Assembly (NCBI GenBank): GCA_043814605.1
Contig: JBDRJV010000010.1
Span: 1,340-65,339 of the forward strand
Direction of reading: 5' to 3'
From: Candidatus Omnitrophota bacterium
GTDB lineage: Bacteria; Omnitrophota; Gorgyraeia; B26-G9
DNA length: 64,000 nt
In this document: piece after piece, positions 5,060 to 56,994 of the stretch
Numbering within the stretch: the first letter of the stretch is position 1
How the letters are laid out: each line of letters opens with the position of its first letter
Notes under the pieces: generated by a model
Databases searched by the model: none
Told to the model about the DNA's origin: nothing
The model's input: the letters and a program-made list of their open reading frames with translations, nothing else
Translations under genes and position numbers: made by a program

Positions 5060-5545
5060 TTGAAAAAACGTGCAGTTTACCCGGGAACTTTTGATCCCGT
5101 AACATACGGGCATATTGATTTAATTAAAAGAGCGGTTAAAATTTTTGATGAAGTTATCGTCTCAGTTGTGGATAATACGGCTAAAAATACTTTATTTAGC
5201 ACAAAAGAACGCATGGAGATGATAAAAAAAACAACCCAAGGGTTTTCAAAAGTCAAAGTAGAAAGCTTTAATCAATTAATGGTTGATTATGTTCATGAGA
5301 AAAAGATTAATGTGGTTATTCGTGGATTAAGAATGATTTCTGATTTTGAATATGAATTTCAGATGGCTTTGACTAATCGAAAAATTAATAAGAATATCGA
5401 AGTAATATTTATGATGCCTAATGAATCATATTCTTTTGTTTCCAGTAAACTAATAAAAGAAGTAGCGGCTTTAGGCGCAGATCTTTCCGCGTTTGTTCCT
5501 AAATTTGTTGAAAAAAAATTAAAGAAAATATTAAATAATTCTTAA
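5060..5545 (+). CDS. coaD: phosphopantetheine adenylyltransferase
   Basis: AVYPGTFDPVTYGHIDLI is the CoaD signature (T/HxGH). Confidence 0.9.
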   Translation: MKKRAVYPGTFDPVTYGHIDLIKRAVKIFDEVIVSVVDNTAKNTLFSTKERMEMIKKTTQGFSKVKVESFNQLMVDYVHEKKINVVIRGLRMISDFEYEFQMALTNRKINKNIEVIFMMPNESYSFVSSKLIKEVAALGADLSAFVPKFVEKKLKKILNNS

Positions 5546-5569
5546 AGTAAATATTTTATCGGGGGAGTA

Positions 5570-27182: not shown

Positions 27183-27269
27183 GCGGAGGTGGTGGAATTG
27201 GCAGACACGCTAGCTTGAGGGGCTAGTGGGAGCAATCTCATGAGGGTTCAAATCCCTCTCTCCGCACCA
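27183..27269 (+). tRNA. tRNA-Leu (anticodon GAG)
   Basis: Cloverleaf with a long variable arm and anticodon loop TTGAGGG. T-arm GGTTCAAATCC and an encoded CCA. Confidence 0.85.
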
Positions 27270-27274
27270 TATTA

Positions 27275-27303
27275 AAATCTTCCTTTTTGGAAGATTTTTT
27301 TAT
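27275..27303 (+). terminator. intrinsic terminator after tRNA-Leu
   Basis: AATCTTCC-TTTTT-GGAAGATT followed by a T7 run. Confidence 0.6.
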
Positions 27304-27595
27304 TTAGGTGAGGGATTTGAAGCAAGCGCCCGCCAAGTGGACACTATGAAGTGGACAGTGGCGAGGTCTCGCCATGCTTTGTGGCGGAAACGCCGATTTT
27401 CACCCCACCCCATTGGTGTTGCTTCGCGATCTAAAAAAATAATCCTTTTTTACCTGCTTTTTTGGTTTAGGCTTGCACGGATTAAAATGTTGTGGTATAC
27501 TTCCACATCACTATCTTAAAGGAATTTATTCGACATGATAGTAATGTTATTTCTAGGGGGATAACAGAGTGAATTGTAGCATTTTATTAAATTTT

Positions 27596-27673
27596 GGGAT
27601 ACGAAGCGATAGCGTCTTTACTCTAATTAAGGCGTTATGAGAAGCCCCCTACTTCCCCCGTTCTTCGTATCCC
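27596..27673 (+). ncRNA. long-loop hairpin repeat, copy A (GGGATACGAAG...CTTCGTATCCC + U-tract)
   Basis: Perfect 11-bp inverted repeat enclosing a 56-nt loop with the conserved C-rich segment GCCCCTACTTCCCCC. Followed by TTTTTT. Confidence 0.5.
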
Positions 27674-27727
27674 TTTTTTATATTTAAATTTAAATTACTA
27701 TAGTTTATTGAAAAAAACTAATATATA

Positions 27728-27736
27728 TGGTATAAT
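27728..27736 (+). promoter_or_regulatory. extended -10 promoter (TGGTATAAT) between the two hairpin repeats
   Basis: TGnTATAAT consensus. The same TGGTATA(A/C)T element recurs upstream of other genes in the window (35044, 42894). Confidence 0.45.
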
Positions 27737-27846
27737 TCTACTAAAGATAAACACTTAACTTATTCAGGGGGGTAGCGGGTTTTTTTTTATTCGCATTAAT
27801 TAAACAGTTTTTAAAAGTATTGTTTAATAAACTTATTCTAAATTTT

Positions 27847-27920
27847 GGGATACGAAGAACAGAATCGCCTTATCCCCTAAGGCGGTTATTGGCCCCTACT
27901 TCCCCCTGTCTTCGTATCCC
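27847..27920 (+). ncRNA. long-loop hairpin repeat, copy B, in the 5' leader of the 27966 gene
   Basis: Same 11-bp stem as copy A. The loop has a CGCCTTA-TCCCC-TAAGGCG sub-hairpin and the conserved GCCCCTACTTCCCCC segment. Followed by a T-rich tract. Confidence 0.5.
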
Positions 27921-27965
27921 TTTATTTAATAAGTTTAATGAGGTTTAGAATTATAATTTACTAAC

Positions 27966-29669
27966 ATGGGGAGGGGAAAAGAAATGGTTAGCAAAAATAT
28001 AAAACAATGTTTGCATTCAAGAAAAATACTGATTTTTTTAGTTATTTTTGGGGTTTTATTTTTTTATGTAAGACCTTTATTTTCTCAAGAAACAGGTTTT
28101 CTTAAAACTAAAATTAAAACTGTTTCCGGGCCAAAACTTAATGAATCGGAACGGGTTAAACAAGTACTGCGCAACCTGGAGATTCCGGAAGATATGGGTT
28201 TTATTAAAGAAATCCATGTACCCAGTAATCCCAACGACCAGTTAATTATCACGATTCAGGATCTGCATTGCCATTATCAGGCGCAAAAAAATATTTGTAA
28301 AGTTATTGACTACCTGACGACAACCTACGGTTTAAAAGTAATCAGTGTTGAAGGCGGCAGCGGTAAAATTGATACTACTTTTTATAAGGAGCTTCCGGAT
28401 GAGAAAATTAAGGAACAGGTAGCCGATTATTTTTTAAAAGAGGCGAGGATTAATGGTACGGAGTATTTTGCGATAACCACAAATAAAGACATTGCTCTTT
28501 ACGGAGCAGAAGATGACAAATATTACAATAAAAATCTGGATGCGTTTCTCAAGGCTCTGCCAAACCGTGAGAGGATTTTAGAAAATATTTCTGTCTTAGA
28601 AAATGATTTAAGTATTCTTAAGAATAAAATATATAACAAAAAACTCAAAGCATTAGATGATTATATTGTTGCTTATGAAAATGGAGAAGTAGATTTTGAG
28701 AATTATATTACGTATATCTGTAAACTCTACGATTCGGATAAACTTGCCCGTGAATTTCCACAGGTTAATCAGCTTTATGAGAGTTTACAGATTAAAACTA
28801 AAGTAGATTTAAAAAAAGCAGAAGAGCAGCGCAAGGAGCTGATTGATTATTTAAGTAAAAATTTAACCCGGTATGCTCTGGAAGAATTTTTAAAAGCGAC
28901 ATTTGAATTCAAGGCAAAAAATCTAGACAGCTTAAGTTATCATAATACACTGGAAAAACTTTATCGTGAAATGCAGAATAAGTCTCAGGTTTTAGCCAAG
29001 GCTTGGCCGCAATTACATTGTTATATTCAATATTTAAATAAACATGAGACATTAGATAAATTTGAACTTTTCCACCAGCTGGATAAATTTGTAGAAAGGA
29101 TTAAGAACAATATTTATACCAGCTATACGCAGAAAACATTAGACCATAATTTAAAAGTTATTCGCTTGGCCCGTAACTTGTTTTCAACTAAATTATTAAA
29201 CCGGGATATGCAAGCCATAACTAAATACCGCAGTGAATTTAAAGCCAAAGATATGAAGAAGTTTATTAAAAGCCAGATGCAGCGGTTAAAGTTAGAGTTA
29301 CACATACCTTCCGATGAAGATCTAGAGGTGATGGAAAAAACTTTGCCGGATTTAGAGGATTTTTATGAATATGCGCACAAACGTAATAATATTTTGGCTA
29401 ATAATACGGTTCAAGCTATGGATGCAGAAAAAGAAAATATCGCGATTTTAGTTACCGGAGGGTTTCATACAGACGGGATCACAGATTATTTTAAAGATAA
29501 ACGAATTTCTTATGTGGTGATTGCCCCAAAAATTGATGAATTAGATCAAGATGATACCCGTTATATTAATGCTTTAAAAGGCAAAAAAACACCGTTTGAG
29601 GAAATGATTGAAAACGAAGCAACCCCCTTAAAAGATACATATTTTGAGGAAAATGAAAATAAAAATTAA
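27966..29669 (+). CDS. hypothetical signal-anchored protein (likely start 27984 with GGAGGGG RBS)
   Basis: N-terminal TM helix. Mostly charged/helical and no recognised domain. Strong SD GGGGAGGGG lies 8 nt before ATG 27984. Confidence 0.5.
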   Translation: MGRGKEMVSKNIKQCLHSRKILIFLVIFGVLFFYVRPLFSQETGFLKTKIKTVSGPKLNESERVKQVLRNLEIPEDMGFIKEIHVPSNPNDQLIITIQDLHCHYQAQKNICKVIDYLTTTYGLKVISVEGGSGKIDTTFYKELPDEKIKEQVADYFLKEARINGTEYFAITTNKDIALYGAEDDKYYNKNLDAFLKALPNRERILENISVLENDLSILKNKIYNKKLKALDDYIVAYENGEVDFENYITYICKLYDSDKLAREFPQVNQLYESLQIKTKVDLKKAEEQRKELIDYLSKNLTRYALEEFLKATFEFKAKNLDSLSYHNTLEKLYREMQNKSQVLAKAWPQLHCYIQYLNKHETLDKFELFHQLDKFVERIKNNIYTSYTQKTLDHNLKVIRLARNLFSTKLLNRDMQAITKYRSEFKAKDMKKFIKSQMQRLKLELHIPSDEDLEVMEKTLPDLEDFYEYAHKRNNILANNTVQAMDAEKENIAILVTGGFHTDGITDYFKDKRISYVVIAPKIDELDQDDTRYINALKGKKTPFEEMIENEATPLKDTYFEENENKN

Positions 29670-40648: not shown

Positions 40649-42811
40649 ATGCCAATCTATGATTCAAAACAACATATCAAATCTGGAATTCCTTTAGGCG
40701 GTATTGGCGCCGGGAAGTTAGAAATAACGCCTTATGGCACTTTAGATTATATTACTTACCAGAATAATTGGACTAACCCGATATGTAATGCGACAAATAA
40801 AGATAAACAAAAAGCGCAGGGAATTGCGGGTTTTCATTTCGCCTTGTATGTAAATGCCCAGGCCGCGGTAATTTGTAAGTTATTACAGACAGAAAAAATC
40901 CAAAATTATCGGACGATAAGTCAAATTGAATTTAAAGGCGAATTTCCTTATGCGCGTTTGAATTATAAAGATCGTAACTTACCAGTTAAAATTTCTCTTT
41001 GTGCCAATTCAATCTTCATCCCTGCGGATATAAAAAATTCCAGTTTGCCGGCTTGTGTTTTTGAATTTGAAGTTATGAATCCAATGCCGAAGAATATTGA
41101 AGTGGGCATTATGTGTGTAGCGCGGAATTTAATTTCTAAAAACTCCGTGGGCAGATTAAACAGTTTAAAAAAATACGGGAAACTTGTGGGGTTAGAATTC
41201 TTACATACCCAGCCATTAGCGCAGGATTCTCAAGCGGGCGATACTTTCTTGAGTGTTTCCAAAAAATCCGGCAGAATTAGTTTTCTCTCTGGCTGGAATA
41301 TGCAAAAGGAAAATTTTTGTTTTGAACCTAAAGTAGGATTAGATGCTTTTGAATATTTTGAAAAAAATGGCACATTACCTAATCTAAGGATGAAACACCC
41401 TACTCAAAGCCAGAGTTTTGAACTCGGCGGTGCATTAGCTGTAAGTTTTAAATTAACTCCTGGTCAAAATAAAAAAGTACCGTTTTTCTATACCTGGCAT
41501 TTTCCGCAGCATTTTCAGGGCCATTTATATGAAAAAAGTTTTAGAAAAAGTAAAGATGTTGCGATTTATGTAGATAAAAACATAAATTTTTTGCAAGCCA
41601 GAACAAGGCAATTACCCGCGATAATAAAAAGTATGGAACTTGCGCCCTGGTTAGCAGATGCTTTAATGAACAATCTCTATACGCTTTTTTCCTCAAGCTG
41701 GTTAACCCGTAATAATGATTTTACTATGTATGAGTCTCCCTTAATTTGTCCTTTGATGGGGACTTTGGATGTTTATTTTTATGCATCCGTAGTGATTGGC
41801 TTGTTATACCCGGAACTGGATAAAAAAGCTTTATTATTATTTAAAAAAAATATTCGCAAAAACGGATATATACCGCATGATTTAGGGTTAGATAGAATTG
41901 ATTTGCCTTCAAATGGAACAACCATGCTGTTATGGAAAGATTTAAATCCTAAATTTATTCTGCTGGTTTATCGGGCATATCTTTTTTCCGGAGACCGGAA
42001 ATTTTTAAAAGATATGTATCCGGCTCTAAAACGGGTTTTTGAGTGTAGTTTAAACTTCGATAAGAATAATGACGGTTTGCCGGACAATGAAGGTTTTGAT
42101 ACCACTTTTGATACATGGGGATTTACTGGGGCGGGTTCTTATAATGGGAGTATTTTTCTGGTAAGCCTTTTGGCGCTTAAAAAAATTGCGGATTATTTTA
42201 ACGATAAGGGATTAGCAAAAAAGTGCTTACATTGTTTTTTAAAAGGACAAAAAAGTTTTGAGGATAAATTATGGAACGGGAAGTTTTATATCACATCAAA
42301 TGATCAAGATAAGATGTATGAGTCTTGTACTGTTGCGCAATTAGCGGGTCAGTGGTATGCATATCTTTTAGGTTTGGGAAGAGTTTTCCCGGAAGATAAT
42401 ATTAAAAGTGCGATAAAATGGATTTTTAAATTAAATGATCAAGATTCTTCATATGGCGCAACAAATTCTGTATTTGTTAATAAAAGAAGAGATAAAGAAT
42501 CCTACCATTCTCAAAATATTTGGCCGGGCGTGTGTTATTCTTTTGCTGCCTTAGCTATATATGAGGGGTTTGAGAAACAAGCTTTAAAACTAACAAAAAA
42601 AGTTTGGGAAACGATAAGTATAAAAAACAAAAGCCCTTGGAATCAGCCGGATGTAATCATTGCCCAAGACGGAAGTTTCGGGTTTGGTGATTATTATATG
42701 CGTAATAATGTAATTTGGGCTGTGCTTTTAGCTTTAGCAAAAAATAATCCTAACATAGAAATCGGCCTTGAGAAAATCAAGGTTTTAGTCAGATTTATGC
42801 ATAAACTCTAA
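40649..42811 (+). CDS. glycoside hydrolase family 116 (GBA2-like glucosylceramidase / beta-glucosidase)
   Basis: N-terminal GIPLGGIGAGKLEI motif characteristic of the GH116 N-domain. 720 aa with (alpha/alpha)6-like C-terminal region. Confidence 0.65.
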   Translation: MPIYDSKQHIKSGIPLGGIGAGKLEITPYGTLDYITYQNNWTNPICNATNKDKQKAQGIAGFHFALYVNAQAAVICKLLQTEKIQNYRTISQIEFKGEFPYARLNYKDRNLPVKISLCANSIFIPADIKNSSLPACVFEFEVMNPMPKNIEVGIMCVARNLISKNSVGRLNSLKKYGKLVGLEFLHTQPLAQDSQAGDTFLSVSKKSGRISFLSGWNMQKENFCFEPKVGLDAFEYFEKNGTLPNLRMKHPTQSQSFELGGALAVSFKLTPGQNKKVPFFYTWHFPQHFQGHLYEKSFRKSKDVAIYVDKNINFLQARTRQLPAIIKSMELAPWLADALMNNLYTLFSSSWLTRNNDFTMYESPLICPLMGTLDVYFYASVVIGLLYPELDKKALLLFKKNIRKNGYIPHDLGLDRIDLPSNGTTMLLWKDLNPKFILLVYRAYLFSGDRKFLKDMYPALKRVFECSLNFDKNNDGLPDNEGFDTTFDTWGFTGAGSYNGSIFLVSLLALKKIADYFNDKGLAKKCLHCFLKGQKSFEDKLWNGKFYITSNDQDKMYESCTVAQLAGQWYAYLLGLGRVFPEDNIKSAIKWIFKLNDQDSSYGATNSVFVNKRRDKESYHSQNIWPGVCYSFAALAIYEGFEKQALKLTKKVWETISIKNKSPWNQPDVIIAQDGSFGFGDYYMRNNVIWAVLLALAKNNPNIEIGLEKIKVLVRFMHKL

Positions 42812-42910: not shown

Positions 42911-43375
42911 ATGGGGAAAATGGAAAAAAAGACAATTGCGACTAATAAAAAAGCTTTATATCAATATGATATTGCGGAGAAAATTGAAGCGGGGATTGAG
43001 CTTTGCGGTACAGAGGTTAAATCTTTAAGGCAGAACAAGTTAGATTTAAAAGACAGCTTTGCCCGGATTAATAATGGAGAAGTATTTTTACATAATTTAT
43101 ATATAAGTCCTTATGATAAAGGCAGTTATAATAATGTTGACCCCCGGCGTATAAGGAAACTTTTATTACATAAAGCCCAAATCAGTAAGCTGATTGGCAA
43201 AATTAATCAAAAAGGCTTTACATTAATTGCGATTAGTTTATACTTTAATGACAAAGGTAAAGCTAAGGTAAATTTGGCATTAGCCAAAGGGCGTAAACTT
43301 TATGATCAGCGGGATAAGATCAAGGATAAGGAAACTGAACAGCGTTTGCGTAAAATATCCAGTATCCGGAAATAA
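42911..43375 (+). CDS. smpB: SsrA-binding protein SmpB
   Basis: ALYQYDI...GIEL.GTEVKSLR and a C-terminal basic tail. It is adjacent to tmRNA. Confidence 0.85.
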   Translation: MGKMEKKTIATNKKALYQYDIAEKIEAGIELCGTEVKSLRQNKLDLKDSFARINNGEVFLHNLYISPYDKGSYNNVDPRRIRKLLLHKAQISKLIGKINQKGFTLIAISLYFNDKGKAKVNLALAKGRKLYDQRDKIKDKETEQRLRKISSIRK

Positions 43376-43545: not shown

Positions 43546-43974
43546 GGGGGTGAAAGGGTTCGACTTAAGTGGATTAAGTAAGAGCAGCATGTCGAGGTGG
43601 TCGGGAGGCCTCGTTAAACACCTGGCAAAAAAATAAACGCTAAAACTGAAGTTCCAGCTAGCGTGGATGCACTTCTTGAAAAAATCGGAACGGGCATTGC
43701 TCATCCGACATTTTCCGGAATGCTTCCAACACCAGTGTTGTTTTAAAATAAAACAACCCGCTTTTTTATCTGCGCCTGCGGGGTAGAAAAGCGTCATCAG
43801 CAGGATCGTCCCGCCGCCTAGCTTTTAGCGGGCGGGATTAAACCCTTAAAAGCTGCCTTTTGAAATACCCTGTTTGCTGGGGATTTTAAAAGAAAGATTT
43901 ATAAACAGACTAAACATGTAGATACTCTTATTGGTTGCTTAAGGACGCGAGTTCAATTCTCGCCACCTCCACCA
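43546..43974 (+). ncRNA. ssrA: tmRNA (ssrA)
   Basis: 5' end GGGGGTGAAAGGGTTCGAC and 3' tRNA-like end GGACGCGAGTTCAATTCTCGCCACCTCCACCA (T-arm + acceptor + CCA). smpB is immediately upstream. A canonical ALAA-type tag reading frame could not be identified by eye. Confidence 0.75.
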
Positions 43975-54586: not shown

Positions 54587-55210
54587 GTGGAGGTTGTAGT
54601 TTCAACACGTAATAAAAATAAGTTTAAAGAAATCTACCGGATTTTAAAAGACAAAAAAATTAAAGTAATCAGTTTAGAAAAATTTTCACATATTCCAGAG
54701 GTAAAAGAAAACGGAAAAACTTTTAATGCTAATGCCTGCAAAAAAGCTCTAGAAATTGCTAAAATAACAAAACACTTAACGGTTGCGGATGATTCAGGAT
54801 TAGAAGTGGCTGTTCTAAATAATACGCCGGGTATCTATTCCGCACGTTTTTCCGGGCCGGGGGCAACATATGAAAAAAATAATGAAAAGCTTTTAACAAA
54901 ATTAAAAGGTGTTCCCAAATCAAAAAGAAAGGCGCGCTTTGTTTGTTGTGTTGCCGTTGCCGATGCTCAAGGTATTATTGATGTTGTTGAGGGATTTTAT
55001 CCGGGGTTTATTCTTGATAAAATAAAAGGGAAAAATGGGTTTGGCTATGACCCGGTTTTTTATTGCCCCAGGCTTAAAAAAACATTTGCGCAAATATCAA
55101 GTTTGCAGAAAAATAGAATAAGCCATAGAGCCCGAGCGTTTAATAAAGCTAAAAAAGTAATTTTGCGTTATATTGAAAATAAAAAAAATAAAAAGGAAAA
55201 ATTATTATGA
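54587..55210 (+). CDS. rdgB: dITP/XTP pyrophosphatase RdgB/HAM1 (refined GTG start; ORF track starts 54542)
   Basis: VVSTRNKNKFKE start, TFxxNAxxKA and the FGYDPVF motif. The RBS AGAGGAG lies 8 nt upstream of GTG 54587. The 54542 start would add a 15-aa non-conserved extension covering a leader motif. Confidence 0.8.
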   Translation: MEVVVSTRNKNKFKEIYRILKDKKIKVISLEKFSHIPEVKENGKTFNANACKKALEIAKITKHLTVADDSGLEVAVLNNTPGIYSARFSGPGATYEKNNEKLLTKLKGVPKSKRKARFVCCVAVADAQGIIDVVEGFYPGFILDKIKGKNGFGYDPVFYCPRLKKTFAQISSLQKNRISHRARAFNKAKKVILRYIENKKNKKEKLL

Positions 55211-56994
55211 ATTTATATTTCAGGTTATTAAGATTTATTAAACCGCATATGTTCACATTATCATTGGCAGTTTTATTTATGGTTTTTTCTGCATTCTTTG
55301 ATAGCGTATCATTAACAATGTTAGTGCCCTTGAGTGATAAAGTTCTCAGCCAAAATCCGATAATTTTTGACCGGCCATTACCTGAATTTTTAACTGTTTT
55401 AATTAATAAAATTAATGTAACAGAGTCTTTAGTGCTGCTTAATTTTACGGTCATCGCAATTATAATTTTATTTATTTTAAAAGGGCTGTTTTTCTTTGGC
55501 CGTACATATTTAATCACAAAATTAAGCCAATTGGTTATTCGGGATATTCGAGACGGGATTTATAAAAAGATTCAAAATTTTTCTCTTGATTATTTTACGC
55601 AAAGTGCAACCGGACACCTTGTTTCCCGGATAACTTATGATGTAGATATCTTAAAAGGGATAATCTCTGTCGGGATAACAGATTTAGTATATCAATTTTT
55701 GACAATGATATTTTTGGCATCCATAGTTTTTTATATCAACTGGAAATGGGCATTAATGTCGGTGGGAATTATTCCTATTGTCGCATTTCCGATTTTTAGT
55801 ATCGGGAAAGTGATTAAAAAAATTAGCACACAAGCCCAGGAAAAAATGGGAGATTTAAATCGTAAATTATTTGAAACTATTTCCGGGGTTAGAATCGTAA
55901 AAGCATTTTCTATGGAAGATGAAGAAATTAATAAAGTAGGAAATCATAACAATGCTTTTTATAAAATTATGATGCGGATGCAAAGAAGGACTCTCTTGCT
56001 TGGGCCCATGACAGAAATTATCGGTGCTTGCGGCGGAGCCGTGGTGCTTTATTATGGAGGGCGGGAGGTTATAAATCAGCAAATGTCTTTTGGGATTTTC
56101 GTTTTATTTTTAGGGGCTTTGTTATCATTGATCCGGCCTTGCCGCAGATTGAGTGAAATCCACAGTATTAATCAGCAAGGACTGGCTGCGGCAAGACGTG
56201 TATTTGACATCTTAGATGCACCGATAAAAGTAACGGAGAAAAAAGATGCGATTGAATTACCCCTTATAAGTAAAGAGATTGTTTTTGAAAATTTAAGTTT
56301 TGGTTACGATGAAAAAATGATTTTAGAAAATATTAATTTGAAGGTCAAAAAGGGGGAAGTTATTGGTTTGGTAGGGGCGAGCGGGGTGGGAAAAACAACA
56401 TTGGTTAATTTAATCCCGCGTTTTTATGATCCGATTAAAGGCGCAGTTAAAATCGATGGTATTGACTTAAAAGATGTAACTTTTAAATCTTTGAGAAAAC
56501 AAATAGGTATTGTTACCCAGGATTTAATGCTTTTCCATGACAGTGTAAAAAATAATATTGCCTACAGCCGTGAAGATGCGAGTGAGGAAGAGATAATCAA
56601 AGCCGCAAAAGTAGCCGAAGCGCATGATTTTATTATAGAGTTACCGCAAGGATATGACACTGTTATCGGGGATATGGGGATGAAACTTTCCGGCGGTCAA
56701 AAGCAGCGTTTAGCCATAGCGCGAGCAGTTCTAGACAATCCGCCGATTCTGATATTGGACGAAGCAACTTCTCAATTAGATGCGGAATCCACCCGTTTGG
56801 TACAAGAAGCGTTGGATAAATTATTAGTAAACCGGACAGCATTTGTAATTGCCCATCGCCTGGCGACAGTGAAAAAACTGGAACGAATTCTTGTTTTTGA
56901 TGATGGTAAGATTATTGAAGAAGGTACACATAATGAATTAATGAGAAAAAACGGGCCATATAAGAAACTCTTTAATTTAGAATTTCTCGCATAA
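55207..56994 (+). CDS. msbA: ABC transporter permease/ATPase, MsbA-like lipid exporter
   Basis: Six-TM domain followed by an NBD with Walker A GASGVGKTT, LSGGQKQR and Walker B ILILDEATS. Confidence 0.85.
   Translation: MNLYFRLLRFIKPHMFTLSLAVLFMVFSAFFDSVSLTMLVPLSDKVLSQNPIIFDRPLPEFLTVLINKINVTESLVLLNFTVIAIIILFILKGLFFFGRTYLITKLSQLVIRDIRDGIYKKIQNFSLDYFTQSATGHLVSRITYDVDILKGIISVGITDLVYQFLTMIFLASIVFYINWKWALMSVGIIPIVAFPIFSIGKVIKKISTQAQEKMGDLNRKLFETISGVRIVKAFSMEDEEINKVGNHNNAFYKIMMRMQRRTLLLGPMTEIIGACGGAVVLYYGGREVINQQMSFGIFVLFLGALLSLIRPCRRLSEIHSINQQGLAAARRVFDILDAPIKVTEKKDAIELPLISKEIVFENLSFGYDEKMILENINLKVKKGEVIGLVGASGVGKTTLVNLIPRFYDPIKGAVKIDGIDLKDVTFKSLRKQIGIVTQDLMLFHDSVKNNIAYSREDASEEEIIKAAKVAEAHDFIIELPQGYDTVIGDMGMKLSGGQKQRLAIARAVLDNPPILILDEATSQLDAESTRLVQEALDKLLVNRTAFVIAHRLATVKKLERILVFDDGKIIEEGTHNELMRKNGPYKKLFNLEFLA

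Follow-up and report, generated by a model that had tools for sequence, protein, structure and literature searches.

The spacer between a tRNA-Leu gene and a gene for a secreted protein in a Candidatus Omnitrophota genome carries two copies of a long hairpin, and the locus raises the question of what these copies are and whether they act on the gene that follows them. Omnitrophota is a widespread uncultured phylum, and the sequence under study is a 64-kb window from a Candidatus Omnitrophota MAG, where the window means the whole stretch of DNA that was analyzed. The locus consists of the following features, with A and B denoting the upstream and downstream copy, respectively, and fam2 the gene downstream of B.

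27183-27269, plus strand: tRNA-Leu(GAG), the context gene upstream of copy A.
27274-27301, plus strand: intrinsic terminator of tRNA-Leu (stem 27274-27298 plus T-run).
27473-27501, plus strand: predicted promoter of RNA A, with -35 TTGCAC (27473-27478), a 17-nt spacer, and extended -10 TGGTATACT (27493-27501).
27508-27595, plus strand: variable 5' leader of RNA A, with a weak G-rich stretch, CTAGGGGGATAAC, at 27553-27565.
27596-27679, plus strand: core domain of RNA A, with stem P1 (27596-27606 / 27663-27673), hairpin P2 (27609-27618 / 27629-27638), unpaired C-box 27644-27659 (invariant core 27646-27659), and U-tract 27674-27679.
27708-27736, plus strand: predicted promoter of RNA B and the fam2 mRNA, with -35 TTGAAA, a 17-nt spacer, and extended -10 TGGTATAAT (27728-27736).
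27767-27788, plus strand: G-box GGGGGGTAGCGGG with T9 immediately after it, ~25 nt from the predicted start of the B transcript.
27808-27817, plus strand: AU-box TTTTTAAAAG in the B leader, with conserved columns (T)TTTAAAAG.
27847-27927, plus strand: core domain of RNA B, with stem P1 (27847-27858 / 27909-27920, plus 2-3 extension pairs), hairpin P2 (27863-27872 / 27878-27887) closed by an invariant UCCCC loop (27873-27877), unpaired C-box 27891-27906, and a weak U-rich tail, TTTATTT (27921-27927).
27968-29669, plus strand: ribosome-binding site GGGGAGGGG (27968-27976) and the fam2 gene (ATG 27984, stop 29669).

Copies A (27596-27673) and B (27847-27920) lie where a preliminary description of this DNA had placed them, and inspection of the sequence and a repeat finder agree that their P1 arms, GGGATACGAAG and CTTCGTATCCC, are identical. 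The stem length of 11 bp given there holds for the shared arms, but the stem of B is actually 12 bp long, with two to three further pairs. Likewise, the reported loop sizes are correct, as P1 encloses 56 nt in A and 52 nt in B of the window, but the enclosed region is not a long loop: it holds the P2 hairpin and an unpaired C-rich strand. The C-rich segment described as shared is indeed identical in both copies and corresponds to a 14-nt C-box, CCCCUACUUCCCCC (DNA CCCCTACTTCCCCC), at 27646-27659 in A and 27893-27906 in B. Of the flanks thought to be conserved, the upstream TAAATTTT precedes both copies, whereas the 3' UUUUUUA follows A but not B, which has UUUAUUUA. The P1 11-mer occurs in the 64 kb of the window at the four arm positions only (0.51 expected with at most one mismatch; four copies reached in 0/100 shuffles), and the C-box is present only twice. 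Since both copies also fold far better than their shuffles, with z = -4.7 for A and z = -7.5 for B, a chance origin is excluded.

The fold common to both subtypes consists of the outer stem P1, the inner hairpin P2, and the unpaired C-box, whose mean unpaired probability is 0.62-0.95 across A and B copies and 0.62-0.89 among those of A. The consensus of P1 in A and B is GGGAUrCGrAG/CUyCGyAUCCC, and the 3' arm of P2 reads UAAGGCG. Apart from a 1-nt deletion in each of two genomes, L019 and L094, the C-box is invariant, even in copies detected without it as bait, and the UCCCC loop of P2 is equally invariant. The A domain measures 77-85 nt, varying by 1-nt indels that keep the helices. A joint MAFFT alignment of A and B shifted the 5' arm of P2 out of register, and the two subtypes were modeled separately. 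Both helices covary: in 16 A sequences 97.9% of cells are paired, and in 17 B sequences 97.7%, with seven pairs changed on both sides in each subtype, a result reached in 0/500 shuffles for either. When the 3' partners are slid by 1-3 columns, pairing falls from ~98% to 36-55%. RNAalifold recovers P1 and P2 from the full B leaders, and an alignment of 16 such leaders shows the AU-box columns (T)TTTAAAAG to be nearly invariant. That A and B are functional structured RNAs, and not chance hairpins, is thus supported, and the related genomes do carry the covarying copies that the preliminary description had proposed to look for.

We found the A-then-B pair in about 16-17 further Omnitrophota loci, one per genome, always in that order and on the same strand, within the synteny hemW, often tRNA-Leu, A, B, fam2. 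A genome scan with the pattern TAAGGCG-N4-16-CCCCTACTTCCCCC returned 11 loci, all in Omnitrophota or PVC MAGs (one RNA-bearing MAG is labeled Planctomycetia), seven of them with two copies and each the only locus of its genome. A route through fam2 homologs, blind to the RNA, added L013, L016, L019, and L092-L096. A and B co-occur wherever the contig is long enough, and one genome (L005) has the pair in a different gene context, with no fam2 downstream of B. Across the whole window, matches to Rfam 15 (4227 covariance models) are limited to tmRNA and three tRNAs; at 27270-28000, with E up to 10, the best overlapping match is Ref1C, at 20.7 bits versus a gathering score of 90 and in the stem only. 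The RNA likewise has no Rfam match in L009, L016, and L019 with E up to 1, which agrees with the earlier statement that no riboswitch class could be matched and extends it to every Rfam class. A literature search on RNA motifs or sRNAs of Omnitrophota/Omnitrophica yielded nothing relevant and no description of a regulatory RNA. A and B therefore appear to be paralogous members of one undescribed family, so far seen only in MAGs of Candidatus Omnitrophota and the PVC group. A phage or mobile origin was considered and rejected, as viral contigs hold no copy and no integrase or transposase was found near the locus.

Each copy belongs to a predicted transcription unit of its own, a better description than that of tandem hairpins flanking a promoter, although the promoter between them is conserved. 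The original promoter inventory was incomplete: a second promoter, TTGCAC-17-TGGTATACT at 27473-27501, precedes A. Its -35 is weak (3/6 matches) and a generic promoter scan skipped it, but the sigma-70-type pattern TTGnnn-17-TGnTAnnnT lies upstream of 15/16 A copies. In the window, transcription of A would start near 27508. The distance from the -10 to P1 ranges from 12 to 94 nt among genomes, so the A leader is dispensable and poorly conserved; in L005 the transcript would begin ~5 nt before P1, which indicates that the domain alone is the functional unit. All 16 A copies carry U-tails with 5-8 T in the first nine positions, and A has the layout of an intrinsic terminator, an 11-12-bp P1 and then a U-tract. 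The 52-60 nt enclosed by P1 far exceed the 3-8-nt loop allowed in the terminator scan, and the terminators of A and B are thus predicted ones.

No consistent gene follows A. In five genomes (the window, L003, L004, L008, and L009) no gene stands between A and B, and A is followed directly by the B promoter. The remaining genomes have unrelated genes in this position: an alpha/beta hydrolase, a radical-SAM protein, an Rpe fusion, and two unknown families. Of eight such genes inspected, six carry a TTGnAA-17-TGnTATACT promoter of their own, and a 250-aa gene that begins 58-59 nt after A in L093 and L094 has no visible promoter. Because A has its own promoter and a U-rich tail, and the genes that follow it are unrelated and usually self-promoted, it is best read as an independent gene for a predicted stand-alone small RNA of roughly 90-175 nt. 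A has the promoter, the terminator, the non-coding character, and the conservation apart from its neighbors that mark such a gene, and its action in trans is a prediction. The idea that A is the leader or riboswitch of a defined gene does not survive this gene survey. Nor is the proposal that A stops read-through from tRNA-Leu upheld: A is not needed for it, given the canonical terminator that the tRNA already has, the conserved A promoter, and the different gene context of the pair in L005. An inverted 12-nt tRNA fragment lies at 27310-27321, where the minus strand holds no tRNA-like gene.

The B promoter of the window matches the consensus at 11/12 positions, with the TG present. The extended -10 TGGTATAAT, reported earlier at 27728, is conserved: TTGnnn-17-TGnTAnnnT stands 97-114 nt from P1 in 15/17 B copies. 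In 16/17 genomes, B is part of the 5' leader of the gene that follows it, and visual inspection of orthologous loci found no promoter-like site between B and that gene. The leader position given in the preliminary description is therefore upheld, but the start of its '27966 gene' is most likely ATG 27984, and its cis-regulatory reading is plausible for B and not for A, which is not a gene leader. B tails have 2-8 T in the first nine positions across genomes (TTTATTT in the window) and resemble an intrinsic terminator only in part. From these sequence features, B is predicted to be the same fold set within the ~240-nt 5' leader of the fam2 mRNA, with a promoter of its own; most genomes would lack an efficient terminator at B, and transcription would run on into fam2.

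Fam2 is a 561-aa secreted protein (NCBI protein P0001 equals 27984-29669 with 100% identity and coverage) that has a conserved, signal-peptide-like N-terminus and no match in Pfam, NCBIfam, or PDB. Inspection of its orthologs in L017 and L020 revealed no B and no G-box, and L018 gives no CM hit, so the link between B and fam2 is not obligatory. The G-rich ribosome-binding site was said to be complementary to the C-rich loop, which is true of the window and L003, but most orthologs have ordinary AAGG/GGAG sites, and sequestration of the binding site by the C-box in cis is rejected as a conserved mechanism for this reason. The possibility that the G-box or the B domain encodes a leader peptide or contains a small ORF is also rejected, as frames and starts (judged by eye) are unconserved and B contains 1-nt indels.

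What the fam2 leader does conserve is a possible partner for the C-box. The G-box has two G-runs that complement the two C-runs of the C-box, and in 16/17 B leaders a site that best complements the C-box is located 79-89 nt ahead of the B domain. When both strands of 254 kb of Omnitrophota DNA were searched with a regular expression for the G-box plus T-run, every match fell inside a B leader, and the first G-run ranges from 4 to 11 G among genomes. Predicted C-box:G-box duplex energies are -18 to -25 kcal/mol; relative to a shuffled C-box, the mean z is only -1.15, with three loci at z ~0 or above, and the complementarity is largely compositional, two C-runs against two G-runs. A target scan of both strands of the window ranks the G-box high, with several coding-region sites pairing about as well. 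The minimum free energy fold of full leaders alternates between a P1 form and a G-box:C-box form, and nothing comparable is conserved for A. The U-tract directly after the G-box is conserved as well, a trait that plain sRNA-mRNA pairing does not explain.

We propose, with about even confidence in the mechanism, that A and B are a C-rich-seed regulatory RNA pair that acts on the fam2 leader by C-box:G-box pairing. The C-box would serve as the base-pairing seed for a G-rich RNA, and the sole conserved candidate for this partner is the G-box, with its two G-runs and U-tract, close to the start of the B/fam2 leader. This leader may alternate between a state in which P1 is closed and both C-box and G-box are free, and a state in which G-box and C-box are paired. 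Abundant free RNA A would occupy the G-box in trans, and this occupancy could shift the balance of folds and thereby, by way of mRNA stability, premature termination, or translation, set the output of fam2. In a variant that we consider very unlikely, the C-box of free A completes a two-molecule terminator hairpin at the G-box and aborts fam2 transcription. The G-box and its U5-9, at +25 to +45, would then be half a terminator, its G-rich 3' arm, and the fam2 transcript has no C-rich 5' arm upstream of the G-box. The C-box of B, made ~110 nt later, would come too late for this and might instead protect or refold full-length leaders. Yarnell and Roberts reportedly described oligonucleotide-induced termination in vitro in 1999, and to our knowledge it is known only in vitro.

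Recognition by a protein offers a different account, in which a protein binds the P1/P2 scaffold with its C-strand on the fam2 leader and A titrates it by mimicry. A and B are near-identical even in paired regions, beyond what base-pairing requires; they occur together in every genome with a sufficient contig, and the invariance of the C-box and UCCCC loop, together with the precedents of GlmY/GlmZ and CsrB-type decoys, points the same way. However, the locus holds no candidate RNA-binding protein beside the RNAs (its neighbors are hemW, tRNA-Leu, fam2, and large cNMP-binding proteins), and mimicry leaves unexplained why B leaders alone carry a G-box that complements the C-box. We regard this account as unlikely, though a serious candidate. 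The conservation of P1 and the UCCCC loop extends to their sequence, which is as compatible with protein recognition as with antisense pairing, if not more so. A cis-acting riboswitch or attenuator, an idea of the preliminary description, with P1/P2/C-box sensing a ligand or factor and P1 plus U-tract acting as terminator in both A and B, is less plausible and in our judgment doubtful. It would account for a covarying fold whose core is closed by a terminator-type stem, for B always lying in a 5' leader at a fixed promoter distance, for the competition of G-box:C-box with P1 in nested folds, and for the 250-aa gene after A in L093 and L094. Yet riboswitch aptamers precede functionally related genes, and here A faces variable genes or none, mostly self-promoted where inspected, and B faces only fam2, which does not follow B in L005. 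Moreover, A has no conserved anti-terminator and a leader of only ~5 nt in L005, and the B tail of many genomes (2-4 T in nine) is no usable U-tract. Known aptamers display mixed conserved junction nucleotides, unlike a C-rich strand of 14 nt for which the domain offers no G partners, and no Rfam riboswitch matches. The riboswitch reading thus fits A poorly.

The most skeptical reading, to which we attach almost no weight, takes the copies for a mere repeated intergenic element or an ordinary terminator pair (REP/MITE-like) with no RNA function. Two similar palindromic units do stand in one AT-rich spacer, each followed by T-rich sequence. Dispersed repeats, however, come in many copies, in variable contexts, and in either orientation, whereas this element occurs twice in 64 kb and at a single locus in each genome, is absent from viral contigs, and keeps its order and synteny in related genomes. 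In addition, the copies have dedicated promoters, two helices are preserved through compensatory changes, the CM score depends on the strand (88-105 bits sense versus 16-26 antisense), and the upstream tRNA has a terminator of its own. Copy number, synteny, promoters, and covariation likewise contradict a known repetitive intergenic terminator family, one of the findings that the preliminary description had named as fatal to its interpretation.

The proposed C-rich-seed pair has partial counterparts among known RNAs. GlmY and GlmZ are homologous free sRNAs of Enterobacteria that work through RapZ and RNase E; they too are two paralogous RNAs of the same fold in one circuit, where one may mimic the other, but both are free, whereas the Omnitrophota B is part of an mRNA leader. 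In the HMP-PP (thiS) motif, a conserved core is enclosed by a stem that doubles as an intrinsic terminator, as in A and B, and its genes are functionally coherent; this motif conserves mixed nucleotides, unlike the C-run strand of A and B, and A has no consistent gene. RepG-like sRNAs are a candidate parallel in mode of action, with a C/U-rich seed inside a terminator hairpin and a G-run partner in the 5' UTR of one specific mRNA, where the length of the G-run varies between strains or genomes, as does run 1 of the G-box. The likeness is a functional analogy, with no sequence or structural homology. The Omnitrophota seed shares a 52-60-nt region enclosed by P1 with a second hairpin, a paralogous sRNA domain is present in the target leader, the G-box has two runs and then a U-tract, and the pairing is predicted.

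In Firmicutes, RsaE/RoxS and FsrA use unpaired C-rich motifs as seeds on G-rich or Shine-Dalgarno-like sequences, and RosA and RsaI are G-rich sponges with two G-rich regions (PMC8216469, PMC6158497). The two G-runs of the G-box resemble the two G-rich regions of RosA and RsaI, and RsaI, like the B leader, has both G-rich and C-rich regions. RsaE/RoxS and FsrA differ from the PVC-group RNAs, for which cmscan gives no Rfam match, in carrying their C-rich regions in several small hairpin loops in place of one long strand closed by a terminator stem, and in having no known paralog embedded in a target leader.

With two subtypes whose helices both covary and whose predicted promoters and terminators are defined, A and B make a well-supported structured-RNA family that could be added to Rfam. 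Its layout is unusual in that a free sRNA is accompanied by a paralog inside the leader of one gene, which also carries seed-complementary sequence. Should the pairing be real, the locus would be a compact, self-contained circuit of sRNA, target, and decoy, and the logic of C-rich seed versus G-rich target known from Firmicutes and Helicobacter would extend to the PVC group. The family also provides an annotation handle on a conserved operon that begins with a secreted protein of unknown fold and continues with giant cNMP-binding proteins. Finally, the invariant 14-mer and the adjacent TAAGGCG of the P2 arm may mark the clade in metagenomes.

Copies A and B were delimited from the sequence and with a repeat finder, and lie in the window among the following features.

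27183–27269, tRNA-Leu(GAG), upstream of A
27274–27298 plus T-run, canonical intrinsic terminator of tRNA-Leu
27473–27501, putative promoter of A, TTGCAC-17-TGGTATACT, upstream of A
27596–27673, + strand, copy A
27708–27736, putative promoter of B, TTGAAA-17-TGGTATAAT (11/12 matches, TG present)
27847–27920, + strand, copy B

A and B have identical 11-nt arms (GGGATACGAAG / CTTCGTATCCC), share the 5′ flank TAAATTTT, and contain the same C-rich segment, CCCCTACTTCCCCC (the C-box), unchanged, which bears out the two hairpin units with identical stems reported in the preliminary description. The arm 11-mer has no further sites in the 64-kb window (0.51 expected by chance), and the C-box occurs there only in A and B. 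Folded as RNA of the + strand, A reaches −28.6 kcal/mol and B −35.2 kcal/mol, with z-scores of −4.7 and −7.5 against dinucleotide shuffles. The outer closing stem, P1, does not enclose a long loop, as first read, but a structured region consisting of an inner hairpin, P2, and a ~20-nt unpaired stretch that holds the C-box. The original observation is confirmed, and its interpretation is supported in part.

Because tRNA-Leu has its own terminator, A is not required to stop tRNA-Leu read-through, the role tentatively proposed for it, and a role of A or B as tRNA terminator is ruled out. Between this terminator and the A promoter lies a ~130-nt GC-rich insert (27304–27430, +), missing from the orthologous loci L003 and L008, that opens with a 12-nt inverted copy (27310–27321) of the tRNA-Leu T-arm (27247–27258), folds at z = −2.3, and overlaps a mechanical 60-aa ORF (27337–27519) with no Pfam match; an integration or rearrangement event at the tRNA may have left it behind. 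T6 directly follows A, and B is followed by TTTATTT, GGGGAGGGG (27968–27976), and ATG 27984, the start of the fam2 gene in NCBI protein P0001 (561 aa, 100% identical), a match that assigns the window to a Candidatus Omnitrophota MAG. The window neighbors are a peptidase-MA/TPR protein, a response regulator, a HemW-like radical-SAM protein, fam2, and a 1697-aa cNMP-binding protein. The 561-aa fam2 product, without known domain, has a signal-peptide-like N-terminus and 35 homologs, almost all in Omnitrophota. It matched nothing in Pfam, NCBIfam, or PDB sequences, and its AlphaFold model, a confident one (pLDDT 82.5) in which a long, entirely helical central part separates strand-helix regions close to either terminus, has no significant match among PDB folds.

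Scanning 185,579 species genomes with the pattern TAAGGCG-N4-16-CCCCTACTTCCCCC returned 11 loci, all in Omnitrophota or PVC MAGs (one labeled Planctomycetia), seven of them with two matches; on inspection, the loci contain two conserved subtypes corresponding to A and B. An RNA-blind route combined a metagenome scan using a fam2 alignment with contig look-ups for fam2 homologs. Searches with covariance models of the B (R1) and A (R2) subtypes added A/B pairs in L013 and L092–L096 and B copies in L016 and L019. Sense strands score 88–105 bits versus 16–26 bits for antisense. In every sufficiently long contig, A precedes B in the same orientation, within the order peptidase-MA, hemW, (tRNA-Leu), A, B, fam2, large signaling proteins. 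The fam2 orthologs L017, L018, and L020 have no copy nearby, nor do L097 and L099, which are second fam2 paralogs from genomes already examined. Distant fam2 paralogs (21–30% identity; L021–L091), of which single contigs from termite-gut and rumen metagenomes hold several, likewise have no such RNA nearby. Viral contigs contain none, which rules out a viral origin.

These related copies carry compensatory changes, the kind of evidence that the preliminary description had asked for. The consensus consists of P1 (12 bp), a short spacer, P2 (9–10 bp), an 18–28-nt unpaired strand with the C-box, and the P1 3′ arm. In MAFFT alignments, 96.8% of pair cells are canonical for A (12 sequences, six pairs changed on both sides) and 96.7% for B (10 sequences, five pairs); in CM-based alignments, the values are 97.9% (16 sequences) and 97.7% (17 sequences), with seven such pairs each. 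None of 500 shuffles reaches the score in any of the four alignments, and shifting the 3′ partners by 1–3 columns drops pairing to 36–55%. RNAalifold independently recovered P1 and P2 from full-length B leaders. Typically, the eighth P1 pair of A changes from A-U to G-C (six versus nine sequences), and P2 of B shows C-G to U-A and U-A to C-G replacements. Since 1-nt indels occur and compensatory changes preserve the helices, a coding region is ruled out. The C-box is invariant except in L019 and L094, which each lack one C, and its predicted mean unpaired probability is 0.62–0.89 in A and 0.84–0.95 in B; the P2 loop reads UCCCC in every B copy and varies among A copies.

A TTGnnn-17-TGnTAnnnT promoter precedes 15/16 A copies at a variable distance (12–94 nt) and 15/17 B copies at a nearly fixed one (97–114 nt). 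All A copies have a U-rich tail (5–8 T among the first nine positions); B tails hold 2–8 T. The A–B spacer contains the B promoter alone in the window, L003, L004, L008, and L009, and elsewhere one gene that depends on the genome (alpha/beta hydrolase, radical-SAM protein, Rpe fusion, or a 250-aa or 690-aa family), with its own promoter of the same consensus in six of eight inspected cases. Because A has a promoter and U-tail of its own, and the next gene varies or is absent and mostly has its own promoter, A is, by these signals, a stand-alone transcription unit. Judged from sequence, A and B are thus two paralogous, strand-specific structured RNAs, each with its own predicted promoter, A carrying a putative terminator and B embedded in the predicted fam2 leader. 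The spacer behaves as an insertion hot-spot (L002 2434–4859; L010; L011 4145–6638; L013 740–3858; L092–L095). A lineage-wide promoter consensus with extended −10, cTTGnAA-N17-TGnTATAcT, precedes A, B, and cargo genes (window 27473–27501 and 27708–27736; spacers of L002, L010, L011, L013, L092, and L095) and could help annotate transcription units in Omnitrophota MAGs.

Locus L005 is the exception in placement: the whole pair (minus strand, 5297–5563) precedes a GH116 glycosidase homolog instead of fam2 (window homolog 40649–42811) and has thus moved as a unit. The predicted A start there, only ~5 nt before P1, points to the P1/P2 domain itself as the functional RNA. Both copies have U7–8 tails, and the U8 tail of this B suggests that B, too, can occur as a free-standing RNA.

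Alignment of 16 B leaders showed additional conservation: a 5′ GAAGUUA-like box, two G-runs termed the G-box, and a AUUUUAAAAG box. The G-box has the form G4–11, N1–9, G3–5, with U5–9 directly after. A G-box plus T-run expression gave 11 matches in 254 kb of Omnitrophota DNA (both strands), all in B leaders, with a single window match at 27767–27788. The only B copy not before fam2, that of L005, lacks the G-box, which therefore appears to travel with the fam2 leader rather than the B domain. The first G-run, 4–11 G long depending on the genome (window 27767–27772; L002, L006, L010, L013), is simple-sequence-repeat-like and recalls the phase-variable G-repeat that RepG targets. The two C-runs of the C-box are complementary to the two G-runs; predicted duplexes reach −18 to −25 kcal/mol in 16/17 B leaders, and real C-boxes are modestly preferred over shuffled ones (mean z = −1.15). 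Minimum-energy folds of whole leaders adopt the P1 form or the G-box:C-box form, depending on the genome. The C-rich strand is thus invariant and, by prediction, accessible, and the G-box that complements it occurs in B leaders only. Both halves of the perfect C-box complement, GGGGGAAGT and GTAGGGGC, also occur 13 nt apart at 56350–56379 (+) in ORF 55207–56994, possibly a trans target or a coincidence.

A and B form a new structured-RNA family of an uncultured phylum, with an unusual architecture: a free sRNA, a leader-embedded paralog, and a G-box. The family most likely works like known C-rich-seed regulatory RNAs, for which RoxS and FsrA, with the G-rich sponges RosA and RsaI, are among the closest functional precedents (PMC8216469); our literature search found no description of the A/B RNA. 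The C-box would act as an antisense seed and the G-box as its conserved partner, with pairing in cis (B), in trans (A), or both setting fam2 expression, a mechanism to which we give even chances as a whole. No C-rich partner lies upstream of the G-box within the B leader. The conserved U-tract abutting the G-box, otherwise unaccounted for, suggests an intrinsic terminator whose missing 5′ arm might be provided in trans by A, a reading we regard as quite improbable.

Conservation of sequence inside the helices would suit a pair of protein-binding mimics, a reading we hold unlikely. Somewhat less likely is a riboswitch or attenuator: the cis-regulatory role first proposed is plausible for B, but A is unlikely to be a metabolite riboswitch, as its downstream gene is inconsistent and no anti-terminator is conserved. 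Rfam 15 holds no family matching the window copies or the RNA in the three other loci scanned (L009, L016, L019), in line with the earlier failure to assign a riboswitch class. That the copies are a meaningless repeat or terminator is barely credible, with only two in 64 kb and one locus per genome in the species scan; arm and C-box copy counts rule out a dispersed repeat and speak against a known repetitive intergenic terminator family.

Elsewhere in the window, SmpB (42911–43375, +) is directly followed by a long tmRNA (43546–43974; 429 nt; Rfam 194.7 bits). ARAGORN gives it the tag peptide 'APAG*', which seems too short to be plausible, so that the resume codon has probably been called wrongly.
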